A DNA stretch of 64,000 bases from Alistipes sp. (GTDB lineage Bacteria; Bacteroidota; Bacteroidia; Bacteroidales; Rikenellaceae). The stretch lies in the NCBI GenBank assembly GCA_017398045.1, contig JAFQHI010000026.1, forward strand, positions 99,513 through 163,512, given 5' to 3'. Within the stretch, counting starts at the first letter, position 1; each line of letters opens with the position of its first letter. The position numbers were made by a program, and so were the translations under genes. Of the stretch, positions 27,753 through 43,896 are shown piece after piece. The notes under the pieces were generated by a model. That model was not told the DNA's origin. It did not search any database and saw only the letters and a list, made by a program, of their open reading frames with translations.

Positions 27753-28643
27753 TTAAATTAACAGGGTTCGGTTTTTAATACGGGTCTCGTGACTCTTCGG
27801 GATTTTAGGCGGTGGATTCTCTGCCCGATTCGATTGGCTGATTAGCTGCCATGAACGACGCCAACAATCAACCCTGTACACGAGTACCTCGTTATTGATT
27901 TTGTTGTAGAGTTTGACCTCTGTCTCTTTTCTACTCGGCTTGCGGACGGTAACCATGAAGATCACCTTCTTTACGATCTCTATCTTTTCGTTTAGCGACA
28001 ACTTCTCATCATCAATCTCTTCCGATAGTAACACATCGTTTATCTGACACTGTTTCATCGCCGACTCATTGGCAAGTTCAACCAATCTCGTCTCGATCTC
28101 CATCTGTTCTACCGAGAGCTCTGCAATCAACTCTTCGGCGCGAGCTTTTCGCAATCTGCCGAAAATGAAACGCTCCTCGACTCGTTCCATCTTATCGTGA
28201 ATAGAGGATAGCTCTCGATTCAGATGCTCGATTTTTGCGGATAGGGTTCCAATCTCTTTGAGGAGCTGTTTGTGTAAGAGTTCTTTGTTTACCACAAACT
28301 TTTCATATAGCTCTTTGGCGACGCTCCAGACCAATGGATCGATGTTGTGCTCAATCAGAAAATCTCGAATGCTGAATAATACCAACTGCCTACGGCTTAA
28401 TCTCGATAGTTCGTAAATATACACCGCCGTAATGGTCGGATTGGTACGAATATGCTCTTTGAGTTTGTTCAGCCCACGCCGCTCCTCCTCGGAGAGTTTA
28501 ATGGCCGACTCCTTATCCTCAATTACGATTACCTCCTCCTTCTTGTATCCATCTTTGTATACCTCCCGCAAAATCTCCTCGGTCTGCTGCCTTAGATCCT
28601 GCTGCAAGGTGCTTACTCTACTTAAAACAATCGCTTTTCTCAT
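27753..28643 (-). pseudogene. Large serine recombinase with an apparent in-frame internal deletion
   Basis: LSRVSTLQQD and YELSRLSR catalytic N-domain joined after ~100 aa directly to a C-terminal coiled coil. Confidence 0.65.
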
Positions 28644-28766
28644 TCATAATATACTGATTTGTAATAATATAACAAACAATCAGCATATCTTTAGCGAGTT
28701 CTTATAGTTTTACCATGGTTTTATGGGAGGACTTAGGAGGGATTTTAAGCACGGGGAGGCCGTAGG

Positions 28767-28872
28767 CCATCCCCTCCTCTTCGCAAAAGGGTTTGCAAGG
28801 GCCTTGGGGGATTGGCTACTACGCGAGCTATAGGCTCGCTCCGTGACGCCTTTCCCCTCCGCTCGCCGCGGG
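28767..28872 (+). repeat. 105-bp direct repeat, right copy
   Basis: Matches 15721-15825. Confidence 0.9.
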
Positions 28873-28973
28873 GGCCCTTGCAAACTTTGGCATGAAGCCC
28901 GAACGACCCCTATGGGGTGCTTTTTATACATATAGGGTACCGTCCGAGTAAACTCGCGGTACCCTATATGCAT

Positions 28974-28997
28974 AAAAAACCTCTGCTAATGCAGAGG
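28974..28997 (-). terminator. Terminator of tRNA-Ser
   Basis: cctctgc-atta-gcagagg followed by TTTTTT on the minus strand. Confidence 0.7.
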
Positions 28998-29023
28998 TCG
29001 TTCGGGCTGTCATGCCCCTTTTG

Positions 29024-29111
29024 CGGAGAGGAGGGGATTCGAACCCCTGAAACACTTTTGGCGTTTACTCACTTTCCAGGCGAGCCAGTTCAACCACTCC
29101 TGCACCTCTCC
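29024..29111 (-). tRNA. tRNA-Ser(GGA)
   Basis: GGAGAGG/CCTCTCC acceptor stem, ctcgc-CTGGAAA-gtgag anticodon arm, long variable arm, GGTTCGAATCC. Confidence 0.95.
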
Positions 29112-30260: not shown

Positions 30261-31100
30261 CTAAATTTCGGGATTGGGACATTCGCGGTACTCGCCGAGG
30301 ATGCTGAAGTCGCTCGTCAGGGGGCGCACCGCCTCGATGGATTGGCGATAGCGGGTATAGTTGTCGAACGTGACGTCGATGTAGAACTGATACTCCCACT
30401 CGTGGCCGATGATGGGCAGCGACTGAATCTTTGTCAGGTTGATGTCGTAGAACGACAGAACGGTGAGAATCTTCGAAAGAGACCCCTGCGTGTGGGGGAG
30501 CGTAAAGCGAATCGAGGCCTTGTTGACCGTCGCGGGGTCCACCACGACCTGCTCCTTGTCGGCCAGAATCAGGAAGCGGGTGAAGTTGTGGCGGTTGGTC
30601 TCGATGGCGCGGGCGAGAATCTCCAGTCCGTACATATGGGCGGCATCCTCGCCACAGATGGCGGCCGTATGGCGCAATCCTCCCTCCAGAATCTCGCGGG
30701 CCGAGCCGGCCGTGTCGTCACGCTCCACGATGCGGGCGTGGGGCATCGTCTTCAGAAAGTCGCCACACTGCATCAGGGCGATGGGGTGGGAGCGTACCTC
30801 CTCGATATCCTCCAGCCGCTGGCCGGGCAGGGCGCAGAGCATATGCGAGATGCGAATCTTCTCCTCGCCGATAATCTGCATACGGCTGCGACGCAAAAGC
30901 TCGTGGTTCGGGAGCAGGGAGCCGGCAATCGTATTCTCGATGGCGGCAATGCCGAGGCGATTGCTATCCTCGGCCAGTCGCTCGAAGAGGACTTCGAAGC
31001 TCTCGCACGGAATCACCTCGATAGGCTCATTGCCGAAGAAACGGTGTGCGGCTGTCTCGTGGAAGCAACCGGCAATGCCCTGTATGGTTACCTGTTTCAT
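30261..31100 (-). CDS. pheA: Prephenate dehydratase with ACT domain
   Basis: Start refined to MKQVTIQG (31100); AIENTIAGS, SHPIALMQC, NFTRF, INLTKIQSLP. Confidence 0.92.
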   Translation of the reverse strand: MKQVTIQGIAGCFHETAAHRFFGNEPIEVIPCESFEVLFERLAEDSNRLGIAAIENTIAGSLLPNHELLRRSRMQIIGEEKIRISHMLCALPGQRLEDIEEVRSHPIALMQCGDFLKTMPHARIVERDDTAGSAREILEGGLRHTAAICGEDAAHMYGLEILARAIETNRHNFTRFLILADKEQVVVDPATVNKASIRFTLPHTQGSLSKILTVLSFYDINLTKIQSLPIIGHEWEYQFYIDVTFDNYTRYRQSIEAVRPLTSDFSILGEYRECPNPEI

Positions 31101-31124
31101 AAATTCAAAGTGGCTTTTCAGTAA

Positions 31125-31158
31125 AAATCCCACTCTTGCACGGGCAGGAGCGGGATTT
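31125..31158 (-). terminator. Attenuator terminator upstream of pheA
   Basis: aaatcccgctc...gagtgggattt followed by a U-run, between the leader peptide and pheA. Confidence 0.75.
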
Positions 31159-31409: not shown

Positions 31410-32597
31410 ATGAAACGCATTTTGGGAATTGTGGCGGTACTTTTCGTGGTAAGTATCGCTTCGGTGTCTGCTCAGAATAAGAGTTCTTATAAAGTTGGCG
31501 ATTACTATGCCGACGATACCAAACGAGGCTTTGTGTTCCAGGTGGATGAGGATGGTCGTAGCGGTAAGATTATCAGCCTGGGAGAGACCAAATTGCCGTG
31601 GTATCAAGGATCGAAAAGAGAGAAACCCCAAAAAATGGGGCTTGAAAACGAGCAGTTCGGCCTATTTAATTTGGTCAAGCTGCGCCATACCGAAGGGTGG
31701 CATGAGTTGTTCCCGGCCTTTGCGTGGTGTGCCGATTTGGGCAATGGCTGGTATTTGCCCTCTACGGGTGAGTTGGAGGAGATTGCCAAGCAACACAAGG
31801 TGTTAAATGATGCGATGCTTCGATTTCCGGGGGCGCATCAAATTCAAGGCATCTATTGGGCCTCTAACGAGGATGCCCAACATGCGGATCGATCGTGGAC
31901 TGCACTCCATTATGGTGGCAGTGCAAGCATGTTGAAGCGGGATGTGAATGCGGTACGCGCCGTTGCATGTTTCAAATTAGAGTCCGATGCAGCAAGCCAA
32001 ACGCCTGCGCGAAGCATCACACACACGCCTGCACGAAATACGGCACGGACGACCCAAACACCCCCTTCGGCAACCGCCACAACGGTCAAAACCTATAAGG
32101 TGGGGGATTACTACAACGACGGCACCAAAGAGGGTATCGTGTTTTGGGTCGATGCCTCCGGTAAACATGGTAAGATCGTAAGCCTTGATGAAGGGAAACT
32201 TCAATGGGGTACAGATGAGCAATATGAAAAGCATATAGTGACCGGTGCTTGCGACGAATTCGATGGCAAAACCAATACCGATAAGATTATGGCGCGCGCC
32301 GACCGAGCAGCCTATCCGGCGTTTGTTTGGTGTCGCAAAAAGGGAAGGGATTGGTATCTTCCTGCATTAGAAGAACTAAAGAGTCTGTTGCGTGATACTT
32401 CGGTGTGTGATGCAGTAGAAAAGAGTCTGAAAAGTAAAGGCGCTGATGGATTTACAAGAAAGCCTTATTGGTCTTCAACAGAAGATCAGGATCTGGATAC
32501 AGGGACCTGCGCGTGGTATGTCTATATGTACTATGGCTACACCAGCACGTTCCCTAAGAACTACTACGACTGTGTGCGCGCCGTCGCTACCTTTTAG
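31410..32597 (+). CDS. Secreted protein with two DUF1566/Lcl-like (C-type-lectin-fold) repeats
   Basis: Signal peptide; duplicated module YKVGDYY..G.VF.VD..G..GKI.SL...WYLP...EL...YW.S.E...VRAVA.F. Confidence 0.7.
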   Translation: MKRILGIVAVLFVVSIASVSAQNKSSYKVGDYYADDTKRGFVFQVDEDGRSGKIISLGETKLPWYQGSKREKPQKMGLENEQFGLFNLVKLRHTEGWHELFPAFAWCADLGNGWYLPSTGELEEIAKQHKVLNDAMLRFPGAHQIQGIYWASNEDAQHADRSWTALHYGGSASMLKRDVNAVRAVACFKLESDAASQTPARSITHTPARNTARTTQTPPSATATTVKTYKVGDYYNDGTKEGIVFWVDASGKHGKIVSLDEGKLQWGTDEQYEKHIVTGACDEFDGKTNTDKIMARADRAAYPAFVWCRKKGRDWYLPALEELKSLLRDTSVCDAVEKSLKSKGADGFTRKPYWSSTEDQDLDTGTCAWYVYMYYGYTSTFPKNYYDCVRAVATF

Positions 32598-32605
32598 GCC
32601 TTAGG

Positions 32606-34213
32606 TTACTCCCTCCCCTCGAAATAGTAGGGCGCGTAGCTCCAGCCGTACAGCTCGTAGAGGCGACGCATCTGCTCCATGCGGGCGCGGATGGTTGTCG
32701 GATTGCGCCTGTCGGTGGCCCATTGCACCTCCGAAAGGGCCGCCAGGCGCGGCAACAACATCCGTTGCAGGTGGTCGAACGAGGTGATGTACTCGCTCCA
32801 GAGGTTGCACTGCAGGCCGTAGATGTAGGGCCGTTCGTCGGCCGTCAGCCCCTCGTAGGGGTTCCAGCCATAGACCTTCTCGAACGATACCCAGCCACCG
32901 ATGGCCAACCCCTCACCCTCCTGGCTCTTCGTCTGGTAGAAGTCGAAGTAGCAGTAATCCATCGGGGTCATGATGGCGAGGTTGCCATGCTGGGCGGCAT
33001 AGATGCCACCCTTCGAGCCTTGCCACGACATCACCGTGGCCTCGGGACTTACACCGCCTGCCAGGATATCGTCCCAGCCGATGATGCGACGGCCGTGCTT
33101 GGCCAGGAAACGCTCGATGCGCCCCGTGAGGTAACTTTGGAGCTGATTCTCGGCCGTGCGTGTCTCGCTCTCGTCCTTCAACCCCAGCTCGCGGATGCGG
33201 GCCTGACAATGTGCGCACTCCTCCCAACGCTCCTTCGGACACTCGTCGCCACCGATGTGGATATACTCCGAGGGGAAGAGTTCGATGACCTCGCCGAGTA
33301 CATTCTCCAAAAATTCGTAGGTCGTCTCCTTGCCGCCACACATTACCTCGGGCGATACGCCCCAATGGGTCCAGACCTCGACCTGCTGCTCCTCGCAACC
33401 CAACCACGGCAGGGCGTGCAGGGCCGCCTGGGCGTGGCTCGGCATCTCGATTTCGGGAATGATGGTGATGTATCGCTCGGCCGCGTAGCGCACGATGTCG
33501 CGAATCTCCTCCTGCGTGAAGAAGTAGGGGCCGTAGGGGATGCCGTCGTAGGTCGTCGAGCGGAGGCAGTGGCCGATGAGCGTTTCGTTACGCTTCGAGG
33601 CGCGCTCCGTCAGCTCGGGGTAGCGTTTAATCTCGATGCGCCACCCCTGGTCGTCCGTCAGGTGCCAATGGAGGCGATTGAGCTTGTGGGCAGCGAGGAT
33701 ATCGAGGTAGTGCTTCACCTCCTCGACGGTGAAGAAGTGGCGCACGACATCCATGTGCGCACCGCGATAGGCAAAGTTGGGCTGGTCCTCCACCTCGCAG
33801 CAGGGGATGGCCGTGCGATGTTGCACGATAAGCTGGCGCAACGATTGCAAGGCGTAATAAACGCCCGCCTCCGAACCACCTGCGATGTGAATCGCGTGGG
33901 GCGTAATCTGCATACGATACCCCTCGGCGTGCAGCGAGGCATCTGTTGTAAGGTGGATGCCGTCGATACGCTTCGTATGGGCGCGGGGAGCCTTCAGCGA
34001 TACGATGGGGGCTACATCCTCGATGAATCGCTCTGCCGGATTCTCAAGCCCCTTTTCGATGTGTATCGGTGTCTTGTGCGAGAGGCGGAATATCCCCTCC
34101 GAGGGGCGAATCGCGGTGGGTTGAGGCAGAATCGAGTAGGTCGTGGCCGATGCGCCGAATGTGAGCAGCAGGGCTGTAACAAGTGCCACCCAACTGCGCA
34201 GGGTGTGTATCAT
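32606..34213 (-). CDS. Beta-N-acetylhexosaminidase (GH20)
   Basis: YRGAHMDVVRHF, LHWHLTDDQGWRIEI, IPEIEMPSH, HIGGDEC, IYGLQCNLWSE. Confidence 0.93.
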   Translation of the reverse strand: MIHTLRSWVALVTALLLTFGASATTYSILPQPTAIRPSEGIFRLSHKTPIHIEKGLENPAERFIEDVAPIVSLKAPRAHTKRIDGIHLTTDASLHAEGYRMQITPHAIHIAGGSEAGVYYALQSLRQLIVQHRTAIPCCEVEDQPNFAYRGAHMDVVRHFFTVEEVKHYLDILAAHKLNRLHWHLTDDQGWRIEIKRYPELTERASKRNETLIGHCLRSTTYDGIPYGPYFFTQEEIRDIVRYAAERYITIIPEIEMPSHAQAALHALPWLGCEEQQVEVWTHWGVSPEVMCGGKETTYEFLENVLGEVIELFPSEYIHIGGDECPKERWEECAHCQARIRELGLKDESETRTAENQLQSYLTGRIERFLAKHGRRIIGWDDILAGGVSPEATVMSWQGSKGGIYAAQHGNLAIMTPMDYCYFDFYQTKSQEGEGLAIGGWVSFEKVYGWNPYEGLTADERPYIYGLQCNLWSEYITSFDHLQRMLLPRLAALSEVQWATDRRNPTTIRARMEQMRRLYELYGWSYAPYYFEGRE

Positions 34214-43000: not shown

Positions 43001-43098
43001 AAAGTCCCTTAAGGGAGCTTAAGGTTACTTAAGGTTGCTTAAGGGGAGGTCTTTAAGGTACTTTAAGCACCCTTCAGTATCTTTAAGGCACCTTAAAA
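43001..43098 (+). repeat. Left flanking 10-mer array/direct repeat of the four-helix-bundle gene
   Basis: 43019-43098 matches 43799-43878 at 78/80 positions. Confidence 0.9.
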
Positions 43099-43108
43099 AA
43101 AGAAAAAT

Positions 43109-43139
43109 TTTGCAAAAAGCGTGAAAAGGAGTACCTTTG
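43109..43139 (+). promoter_or_regulatory. Bacteroidetes promoter (-33 TTTG, -7 TACCTTTG) of the four-helix-bundle gene
   Basis: TTTG at 43109 and TACCTTTG at 43132-43139. Confidence 0.65.
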
Positions 43140-43160
43140 AGTCTATTAAAGTGGTTTTTT

Positions 43161-43709
43161 ATGGCAGGTTTGGTCCCTAACCGAGGTAATTATCGGCAAC
43201 TGTTATGTTATCGCAAAGCAGAGGCAATCTATGATATTACCTATCATTTCGTGATGCATTTTGTGGAACATGGTGACCGAACTCGCGACCAAATGGTGCA
43301 GGCGGCACGTTCGGGGAAACAAAATATCGCAGAGGGGTACGCGGCCGGTGCGACCTCGAAAGAGACGGAACTCAAGTTGCTTAATGTGGCTAAGAGTAGT
43401 TTGAATGAGTTGTTGGAGGATTATTTGGACTATTTGCGCACACGTCGGTTGCGTCGCTGGGAGGAGTCGAGTGTCGAAATGAAACGCGCGCAGGAGTTGG
43501 GCAAGGAGCATAACGATACCGAGTTTTGGATGTCGATTGTGGAAAATCGTGGCGATGAAACCGTTGCCAATATAGCTATCGTGTTGCTCTACCAGGCCGA
43601 CTATTTGATATATAAGTATATTCAGTCGGTCGAGGCTCGTTTCCTGGAGCAGGGCGGTTTCCGTGAAAAACTCTCCATGGAGCGTCGTCGCGCGCGAGGA
43701 CAGAAGTAA
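43161..43709 (+). CDS. Four-helix-bundle protein (TIGR02436-like, with suffix domain)
   Basis: Start refined to ATG 43161; GNYRQLLCYRKAEAIYD, DRTRDQMVQAARSGKQNIAEG, VAKSSLNELLEDYLDYL, FLEQGGFREKL. Confidence 0.85.
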   Translation: MAGLVPNRGNYRQLLCYRKAEAIYDITYHFVMHFVEHGDRTRDQMVQAARSGKQNIAEGYAAGATSKETELKLLNVAKSSLNELLEDYLDYLRTRRLRRWEESSVEMKRAQELGKEHNDTEFWMSIVENRGDETVANIAIVLLYQADYLIYKYIQSVEARFLEQGGFREKLSMERRRARGQK

Positions 43710-43717
43710 GAAAGAGC

Positions 43718-43896
43718 CTTAAAGTTTCTTAAGGGAGCTTAAGGTTGCTTAAAGTTTCTTAAAGTTTCTTAAAGTTGCTTAAAGTTACTTAAGGTTACTT
43801 AAGGTTACTTAAGGTTGCTTAAGGGGTGGTCTTTAAGGTACTTTAAGCCCCCTTCAGTATCTTTAAGGCACCTTAAAACTCACCTTAAAACTCACC
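43718..43896 (+). repeat. Right flanking 10-mer array/direct repeat
   Basis: About 10 units of CTTAA[AG]GTT[ATG]-type, then the 80-bp block shared with the left flank. Confidence 0.9.

Follow-up and report, generated by a model that had tools for sequence, protein, structure and literature searches.

A chromosomal lectin gene of an Alistipes-like bacterium ends in a variable region of the diversity-generating retroelement type that is an orphan in its own assembly

Among diversity-generating retroelements (DGRs), variable regions (VRs) of category d/CLec2 overlap DUF1566, DUF823 or Fib_succ_major domains, and LdtA of Legionella pneumophila is an example (Wu et al. 2018, PMC5758913). Remote DGR targets have been described for the TvpA paralogues of Treponema denticola and for Thiohalocapsa PB-PSB1, in which incomplete loci are diversified in trans; DGR 1 of PB-PSB1 includes a non-diversifying target with a matching template repeat (TR) (PMC4891356, PMC10907252). 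Action in trans is established for other DGRs as well (PMC5758913; PMC10907252), and for phage-associated DGRs no remote cellular targets were expected (Wu et al. 2018, PMC5758913). The locus studied here is a gene for an exported protein with two DUF1566-type lectin domains, located in a stretch of 64,000 nucleotides (nt), hereafter the window, of Alistipes sp. contig JAFQHI010000026.1 (assembly GCA_017398045.1, forward-strand positions 99,513 to 163,512). The organism is Alistipes-like and belongs to the Rikenellaceae, as judged by the labels of near-identical loci.

The segment 32437-32597 of the window is considered, with a probability of about 0.8, to be a genuine DGR-type VR at the C-terminus of a chromosomal Sec-exported lectin, and to represent a dormant orphan target for which the machinery was once supplied in trans. 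The 78-nt core of the VR descends from a TR of the class that lies beside genes for bAvd and a DGR reverse transcriptase (RT) in phage-like contigs of Alistipes/Rikenellaceae, and the VR is an orphan in its own assembly. Its rewriting would have been carried out in trans by a mobile DGR.

A search pattern for the TR (TGGAAYGTNAAYATGAAYAAYGGNAAYAC) was derived from the fixed columns inferred by comparing strain alleles, and was used to query public collections. It matched two IMG/VR viral contigs, five genome contigs (Alistipes/Rikenellaceae/Bacteroidales) and four metagenome contigs. The matches have the sequence EFCAWNVNMNNGNTNNNNKNNNNYVRAVSEF, and an RT open reading frame (ORF) comes immediately after them. 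The TRs have the DNA sequence tgt gcg tgg aat gtc aat atg aac aat ggc aac acc ... gtg cgt gcc gtc, and the class is described by TGY GCG TGG AAY GTN AAY ATG AAY AAY GGN AAY ACN AAY AAY AAY AAT AAG AAY AAY AAY AAY TAY GTG CGY GCN GTN. At locus L150 (JAFTOX010000021.1), a baseplate hub gene (phrog_4930) is followed by a gene for a target of 384 amino acids that ends in ...YYWSSTQEDEFCAWGVNMGTGDASYGSKSNFNYVRAVSAFQYKY (YVRAVSAF), the bAvd gene (PF22296, phrog_3206), the TR and the RT gene (RVT_1, phrog_1423), and all mismatches between the VR in cis and the TR are at TR adenines. L150 is a canonical phage-associated DGR. Other cassettes of the same kind are L147/L148 (IMG/VR), L149, L151, L152 and L153, and a second canonical DGR with DUF1566-type targets is found at L022 in a genome of the same genus. 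Wherever the context is visible (L150 and the two IMG/VR contigs), the DGR machinery is phage-associated. Of 201 genomes sampled from the genus, 25 have an RT of the L150 clade, and many DUF1566-style TRs lie alongside.

When a real TR was used as blastn query in the genome that carries the window, a single match was obtained, namely the VR core (77% over 78 nt, E 1.6e-12). The best-matching TR, that of L150/L152, differs from the core at 15 of its 31 adenines and at three of its 47 other bases (Fisher p = 2.5e-5), and two of the three non-adenine differences (tgc/tgt and cgc/cgt) are synonymous and also found among TRs. No TR variant has an A at 45 of the core positions, and at 44 of these the window has the base of a known TR variant, the exception being G at 32549. 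The 14 adenine-containing codons comprise 13 AAY and one TAT, and 13 of the 14 have the third base (C or T) of the TR (p = 9e-4). At the AAY codons the window encodes YYYYYSTFPNYYD, and NNY can specify every one of these residues. Codons derived from AAY can specify only NNY-encodable residues and can never become a stop codon. By analogy with phage BPP-1, the GC-rich GTGCGCGCCGTC that ends the core is a candidate boundary resembling the initiation of mutagenic homing (IMH) element.

Codons of the NNY type number 16 of 21 within the core and 177 of 351 in the gene outside it (Fisher p = 0.018). This excess alone is modest and partly forced by the content of Tyr, Asn, Asp, Cys and Phe; hence an independent test was needed, and it is the comparison with real TRs, not codon bias, that puts the pattern beyond chance. 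An earlier note on this DNA had proposed a DGR variable region on the CLec-type end of the DUF1566 gene, which is now supported by TR homology, the fold and the variation of TR-adenine columns between strains. The ORF translation and codon list given there are exact, and the codons regarded as fixed are exactly the non-AAY codons of real TRs. The template predicted, gcgtggaa[ct]gtcaa[ct]atgaacaa[ct]ggcaacacc...gtgcgcgccgtc, corresponds almost letter for letter to the TR of related genomes. A search for such a template next to an RT, as advised in the note, succeeded in related genomes and viral contigs, where it also lies beside bAvd, and failed in the own genome. The start of the VR had been placed at 32465, one base early, as the codon for Y353 starts at 32466. 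The observations that had been named as unfavourable to the proposal were the lack of a TR and RT in the genome or close relatives and of hypervariability at adenine positions across strains; in fact, close relatives have both TR and RT, the latter in the 25 of 201 genus genomes mentioned above, and the TR-adenine columns vary between strains.

Six other alleles with the same neighbours (a prephenate dehydratase (PDT) gene, the target gene and a GH20 gene) were available for comparison between strains. The gene body and downstream flank are 93-97% identical, and the VR block is 73-85% identical or unalignable; sliding identity drops from 27-30/30 to ~11-23/30 only within the block delimited in Table 1. 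The closest sister-species homologue, whose protein is 62-65% identical and has different neighbours, was represented by four alleles. These differ at 2-8 of 1035 positions in the body (0.2-0.8%) versus 12-25 of 135 in the VR block (9-19%), and the variable columns comprise 24 of the 31 TR adenines versus eight of the 47 non-adenine positions (p = 1e-7). Members of 90% clusters likewise differ almost only in the VR block. Both between strains and in the sister-species homologue, the population variation is concentrated at TR-adenine columns.

The equivalent loop of the first lectin domain is kept among homologues that are 60-100% identical (alignment A1), and its DNA is 93-100% identical between strains. 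Domain 1 was considered as an internal template and rejected, as the alignment of the two domains is limited to their N-terminal parts (65% at the DNA level) and the domain-1 loop is conserved. A variable codon lies just before YWSSTE (32457-32465; RKP/RES/GAS/GNT), and in the sister species (L192-L194) codon 3 before YWSSTE is C/F/I. This codon is outside the span of every TR found. As the variation extends 5' of EFCAW and includes the codon before YWSSTE, the true template is probably longer than the known TRs.

At least 24 contigs (37 index blocks) encode the exact window protein, and clustering at 90% places no other protein with it. One copy of the locus, L114, has an identical gene, though the adjoining GH20 gene differs by 1.6%. 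The VR is static in the clone to which the window genome belongs.

Pfam Lcl_C/DUF1566 (PF07603) is found in two stretches of the target protein with a score of 58.2 bits (gathering cut-off 34.9). An AlphaFold2 model built on 40 homologues (mean pLDDT 82.4) has two folded domains, with residues 1-21 and 194-224 disordered. Foldseek against the PDB gave the C-terminal domain of Legionella Lcl (8q4e, E 1e-6) as the top match, followed by a Bacteroides ovatus fimbrial protein (4eps, BACOVA_04982) and many C-type lectin-like domains. Pfam, AlphaFold2 and Foldseek agree that the VR is located at the C-terminus of a domain with the C-type lectin fold. The translation of the ORF ends in ...YWSSTEDQDLDTGTCAWYVYMYYGYTSTFPKNYYDCVRAVATF. 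The signal peptide appears to be of the Sec type and has no lipobox cysteine; this call is a reading of the sequence together with low pLDDT.

Table 1. Positions of the target gene, its variable region and adjoining features in the window
Feature	Position	Strand	Basis or remark
Target gene	31410..32597	+	ORF, 395 codons/395 amino acids; signal peptide and two DUF1566/Lcl_C lectin-fold domains with a T/P-rich linker between them
Putative Sec-type signal peptide (MKRILGIVAVLFVVSIASVSA/QN)	31410..31472	+	Read off the sequence; low pLDDT of residues 1-21
First lectin-fold domain	31482..31979	+	Equivalent C-terminal loop (YWASNEDAQHADRSWTALHYGGSASMLKRDVNAVRAVACF) not variable
Second lectin-fold domain, VR at its C-terminus	32082..32594	+	Pfam, alignment, AlphaFold2, Foldseek
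Block hypervariable between strain alleles at the same syntenic locus	32437..32575	+	Sliding identity; indels in the 5' part
VR core homologous to DGR TRs (TGC GCG TGG ... GTG CGC GCC GTC), 78 nt	32508..32585	+	Gap-free alignment to the L150/L152 TR
GC-rich invariant 3' end of VR (GTGCGCGCCGTC), 12 nt	32574..32585	+	Same in all alleles and TRs save C/T wobble
TTAGG, conserved flank element 3' of VR	32601..32605	+	4 nt after the stop; 7th base from the first base of the stop
PDT gene, upstream syntenic neighbour	30261..31133	-	ORF; PDT label in syntenic loci L025, L111 and L112
Convergent GH20 beta-hexosaminidase gene, 8 nt from the target gene	32606..34213	-	ORF; Pfam labels of syntenic loci

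The assembly that includes the window comprises 2.36 Mb in 56 contigs and is 91.5% complete. No RVT_1 domain (PF00078) was found in it at E <= 0.01, and tblastn with the L150 RT gave nothing better than E ~1. Neither a bAvd domain (PF22296) nor a tblastn match to the L150 Avd was detected, and blastn at word size 7 with the VR, the whole gene and the real TR as queries returned the VR only. By none of the three tests (RT, cognate TR and Avd) does the assembly contain a complete resident DGR, and the earlier statement that there is no RT or TR in the window is correct and holds for the whole assembly too. RVT_1 is also lacking from G041 and G042, the genomes with the closest homologues. The choice between a target diversified in trans and a fossil had been left open; for the window genome, the lack of RT, TR and Avd and the identical allele on at least 24 contigs favour a VR that is dormant or fossil now. 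A four-helix-bundle gene of the window (43137-43709) was examined as a possible Avd gene and rejected, since its domain, PF05635, is not bAvd and its product has no similarity to the L150 Avd (E = 1.1). This PF05635 gene, which belongs to the clan of Avd, is flanked by arrays of 10-nt CTTAAGG-type units (43001-43896). Similar 10-nt phased TTAGG/TTAAGG arrays were seen slightly downstream of the VR genes in L119, L129, L131, L140 and L141.

The canonical VR end together with TTAGG is present in 31 of the 201 genus genomes; a reversed control pattern gave 0 matches. Four of these 31 genomes have an RT of the L150 clade, and 22 are without any RVT_1, some of them being 98-100% complete. Orphan VRs are the rule in the genus. 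Genome G120 (98% complete, 10 contigs) has at least nine VR ends on DUF1566 genes across the chromosome with A-biased mismatches to the TR, no DUF1566-type TR anywhere in the genome, and a single RT without a TR beside it. Its VR-end sites are C1:163455, C1:227091, C4:36785, C4:209902, C7:33429, C9:159602, C10:280532, C11:15441, C11:24097, C13:38290, C13:132735 and C13:184479. The RTs of the VR-rich genomes G120 and G129 were rejected as parts of cognate DGRs, as that of G120 has no TR and the TR of G129 is of the FGE-sulfatase class.

Genome G223, which has a DGR, carries more VRs on other contigs, one of them in a TIR/L12-C/Lcl_C protein among housekeeping genes. Proteins of this type with TIR (PF13676), L7-L12-C and Lcl_C domains and the same VR frame include L115 3208-4431 (G223, JAFVOR010000009.1), P0035, P0044, P0063 and others. 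These relatives look cytoplasmic, are found in housekeeping contexts and present DGR-type variable tips on TIR effectors. G223 also has two different DUF1566-type TRs, EFCAWNVNMNNGNT... and SWNLNWNNGNLNNNNKNNNNYVRAVSEF, at contig ends (L153/L183 at the end of C42 and L179 at the start of C63), which indicates that DGR loci break assemblies.

Of 30 chromosomal VR genes from different genomes of other Rikenellaceae, 21 have a TTAGG downstream of the VR that starts 4-7 bases from the first base of the stop; the background expectation is 0.45%. In the window, TTAGG sits at the modal offset, and the consensus of the flank is TAGnnTTTAGGCTT. The end ...GTGCGYGCNGTNTCCGCTTTTTAR nnn TTAGGCTT is common to nearly all VR genes of this class on chromosomes. 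The phage targets in cis carry TATTAGGCTTTTG after the VR, and the TRs are without the TTAGG element. In the own genome (G000), TTAGG/CCTAA is approximately six-fold under-represented (745 observed, ~4600 expected); CTTAAGG is slightly over-represented (402 observed, ~288 expected). A conserved non-coding element with the consensus TAGnnTTTAGGCTTnnnGnTTT follows the stop codon of DGR-type DUF1566 genes (window 32598-32612; L116-L146, L150, L153, L176 and L178) and is a candidate target-recognition signal. The candidate 3' target elements at the window VR are the 12-nt GTGCGCGCCGTC held in common with the TRs and the post-stop TTAGG, with no convincing hairpin.

In the mechanism proposed, an RT/Avd complex would copy TR RNA and misincorporate bases opposite its adenines, after which the VR would be replaced by the cDNA (mutagenic retrohoming). 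The 13 AAY codons and one TAT codon, predicted to line the ligand-binding face of the lectin fold, would thereby be rewritten. The machinery would not be a stable part of the chromosome; a mobile DGR, probably carried by a phage, would have provided it in trans and either never resided in the genome or disappeared from it later. The VR would now be dormant and formally competent: the GC-rich 3' boundary and the post-stop TTAGG are kept, and therefore it could be rewritten again. Supply in trans is in keeping with the fact that genomes with recently diversified VRs mostly lack an RT.

Several observations weigh against a dormant orphan target serviced in trans. The best TR comes from a phage of another species and gives no coverage of 32437-32507, the 5' third of the variable block. 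Known TRs begin at EFCAW, and the variation, with indels, reaches ~70 nt further 5'. The last two codons before TTT differ (GCT ACC TTT in the window versus TCC GAA TTT in the TR), and the non-adenine mismatch at 32549 (G) has no explanation. No cognate TR was found in any search of the own genome or of viral, genome and metagenome contigs. A pattern for a TR with both conserved VR flanks (TGGTCNTCNACNGAA...GTGCGYGCCGT) gave 0 viral matches and 32 genome matches, none of which is a TR; VR-like C-termini of DUF1566 genes account for 31, and the remaining one (L139, Pyrinomonadaceae) matches by chance and is unrelated. Patterns with the species-specific 3' end (GTCGCT) gave 0 matches in viral and metagenome contigs, and those with the species-specific 5' spacer gave 0 matches in viral and genome contigs. 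Close alleles (L111/L112; P0007/P0142) have many mutated states in common. A homing event that re-randomised the whole VR would not produce this, and point changes during descent, recombination or partial homing may account for some of the variation. No convincing hairpin or cruciform follows the window VR; as the GH20 gene lies only 8 nt past the stop codon, the space left is too short for a terminator or hairpin. Finally, the metagenome-assembled genome is incomplete (91.5%, 56 contigs) and DGR loci tend to break at TR/VR repeats, as seen for the TRs of G223 (C42/C63) and G079 (C7/C26) that lie at contig ends; hence a resident DGR on an unbinned contig is the main alternative to true absence.

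On that alternative, the VR is an active remote target of a cognate DGR (prophage, plasmid or integrative and conjugative element) that was left unassembled or unbinned, and low-level diversification proceeds below the consensus. Besides the incompleteness of the assembly and the contig-end position of TRs in related metagenome-assembled genomes, the intact GC-rich 3' boundary and TTAGG element are compatible with such activity, and the sister-species alleles, diverged in the VR with bodies 99.2-99.8% identical, point to evolutionarily recent rewriting in the gene family. However, the same allele recurs on at least 24 contigs, and the L114 gene is identical despite the 1.6% divergence of GH20. 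No RT, Avd or TR was found in the own genome or in G041 and G042, and genomes that are 98-100% complete and carry the same kind of VR are also without any RT. An active target is thus unlikely.

It is quite improbable that the alleles, instead of being written in place, entered the chromosome by homologous recombination or gene conversion with already diversified VRs of phage tail-fibre genes or of DUF1566 paralogues in other strains. Alleles differ by indels and in their 3' ends (VRAVATF versus VRAVSAF in L025), which is impossible by retrohoming from a single TR, and the phage targets in cis and the chromosomal targets share the frame CAW.V.M..G.T....K....YVRAVSAF and the TTAGGCTT flank as possible recombination anchors. 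However, the indels are also explicable by different TR variants homing into one site, and the own genome has no second copy that could serve as a conversion donor. The flanks of the phage VRs in cis differ on both sides, with no YWSSTE spacer of the window's kind and TTTCA... in place of TTTTTAG. Moreover, the sister-species alleles are equal in length and vary column by column at TR-adenine sites, not in contiguous tracts.

The view that no DGR was ever involved, and that an ordinary fast-evolving, Tyr-rich ligand-binding loop of a DUF1566 lectin is under diversifying selection with the NNY pattern a product of composition, draws on the weak and composition-forced NNY enrichment (p = 0.018) and on the lack of both RT and TR from the genome, but is scarcely credible given the nucleotide homology to real TRs with the third-base C/T kept in 13 of 14 codons and adenine-specific mismatches (p = 2.5e-5), the conserved paralogous loop in domain 1 of the same protein, and the coincidence of variable columns with TR adenines (p = 1e-7).

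A broader and more tentative proposal is that conserved chromosomal lectin genes of the genus might keep 'docking' VRs that are rewritten only when a mobile phage-borne DGR passes (hit-and-run diversification); we regard this as possible and rather doubtful. The docking regions would be recognised by the TR-matched frame, the GC-rich boundary and TTAGGCTT after the stop, and would occur on both secreted DUF1566 and cytoplasmic TIR-DUF1566 proteins. Were it true, service to host genes in trans would be routine for phage DGRs, surface and sensor proteins of the host would be reshaped by temperate or transient phages, and most genomes would have orphan VRs without an RT. Most targets in gut Rikenellaceae would then escape those DGR surveys in which an RT beside the VR is a requirement, and the post-stop TTAGGCTT would be a candidate target-recognition signal that is testable by mutation. 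Independently of this proposal, the target gene can be annotated as a DGR target, with defined VR coordinates and frame, though its own genome gives no sign of a DGR. It also provides a testable case in which one TR family resides on phage-like elements, the matching VRs are found in housekeeping regions of many RT-less genomes, and the VRs of those genomes show recent change at TR-adenine columns between strains.

The wider surroundings of the target gene are of a housekeeping nature. A mobile element was considered and rejected, as the genes around include those for a TonB receptor, an ABC transporter, LuxR, aromatic amino-acid metabolism, GH20 and UxuA. A serine recombinase (Resolvase) gene is located by tRNA-Ser(GGA) at 27753-29111 in the window and is also present in L112; a major facilitator superfamily transporter gene takes its place in L025. 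Located ~3 kb upstream of the locus, the Resolvase stretch is a small insertion and the only part of the neighbourhood that varies between strains.

As compared with the described systems, the window VR is closest to the phage-borne cassettes of Rikenellaceae (L150 and others), with which it shares the TR frame and nearly all TR bases (EFCAWNVNMNNGNTNNNNKNNNNYVRAVSEF), a target that ends in a DUF1566-like lectin tip (YVRAVSAF in the cassettes), the GC-rich 3' boundary and TTAGGCTT 3' of the VR. Those cassettes are complete (target, bAvd, TR and RT) and lie among phage baseplate/tail genes, whereas the window has a lone VR in a housekeeping neighbourhood. The target also differs from the cassette targets in being a different protein, with a signal peptide and two lectin domains, and in having a 5' spacer and last two codons outside the TR.

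Like the window protein, LdtA is an exported protein with the VR at the C-terminus of a DUF1566-type lectin fold and an AAY-rich template design. LdtA, however, is a lipoprotein encoded beside its own DGR on a genomic island, and the window protein lacks a lipobox and comes from a genome without a DGR. The top Foldseek match of the window protein, the C-terminal domain of Legionella Lcl, is the one that names the Pfam family. The remote targets of T. denticola and PB-PSB1 are similar in that the VR is far from the RT and matches the TR at non-adenine sites. They differ in having the RT and TR elsewhere in the same, cellular genome, whereas the window genome has neither and the matching TR family is phage-associated. 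Supply in trans to the window VR thus runs against the expectation of Wu et al. 2018 on phage-associated DGRs.

The DGR of Bordetella phage BPP-1 (mtd, avd, TR and brt) exhibits the same adenine-specific flow from TR to VR, a tip with the CLec fold and a GC-rich 3' VR element. It acts in cis on the receptor-binding protein of the phage and needs an IMH and a downstream hairpin; the window VR shows no evident hairpin and has another conserved flank, TTAGGCTT, in its place. The TIR effectors with variable tips recall the 'antigen sensor' proposal made for Thiohalocapsa. What may, tentatively, go beyond the known systems is the combination seen across the genus: TRs are of the phage type, chromosomal VRs that match them and have recently diversified occur in genomes without an RT, and an element after the stop codon is conserved.

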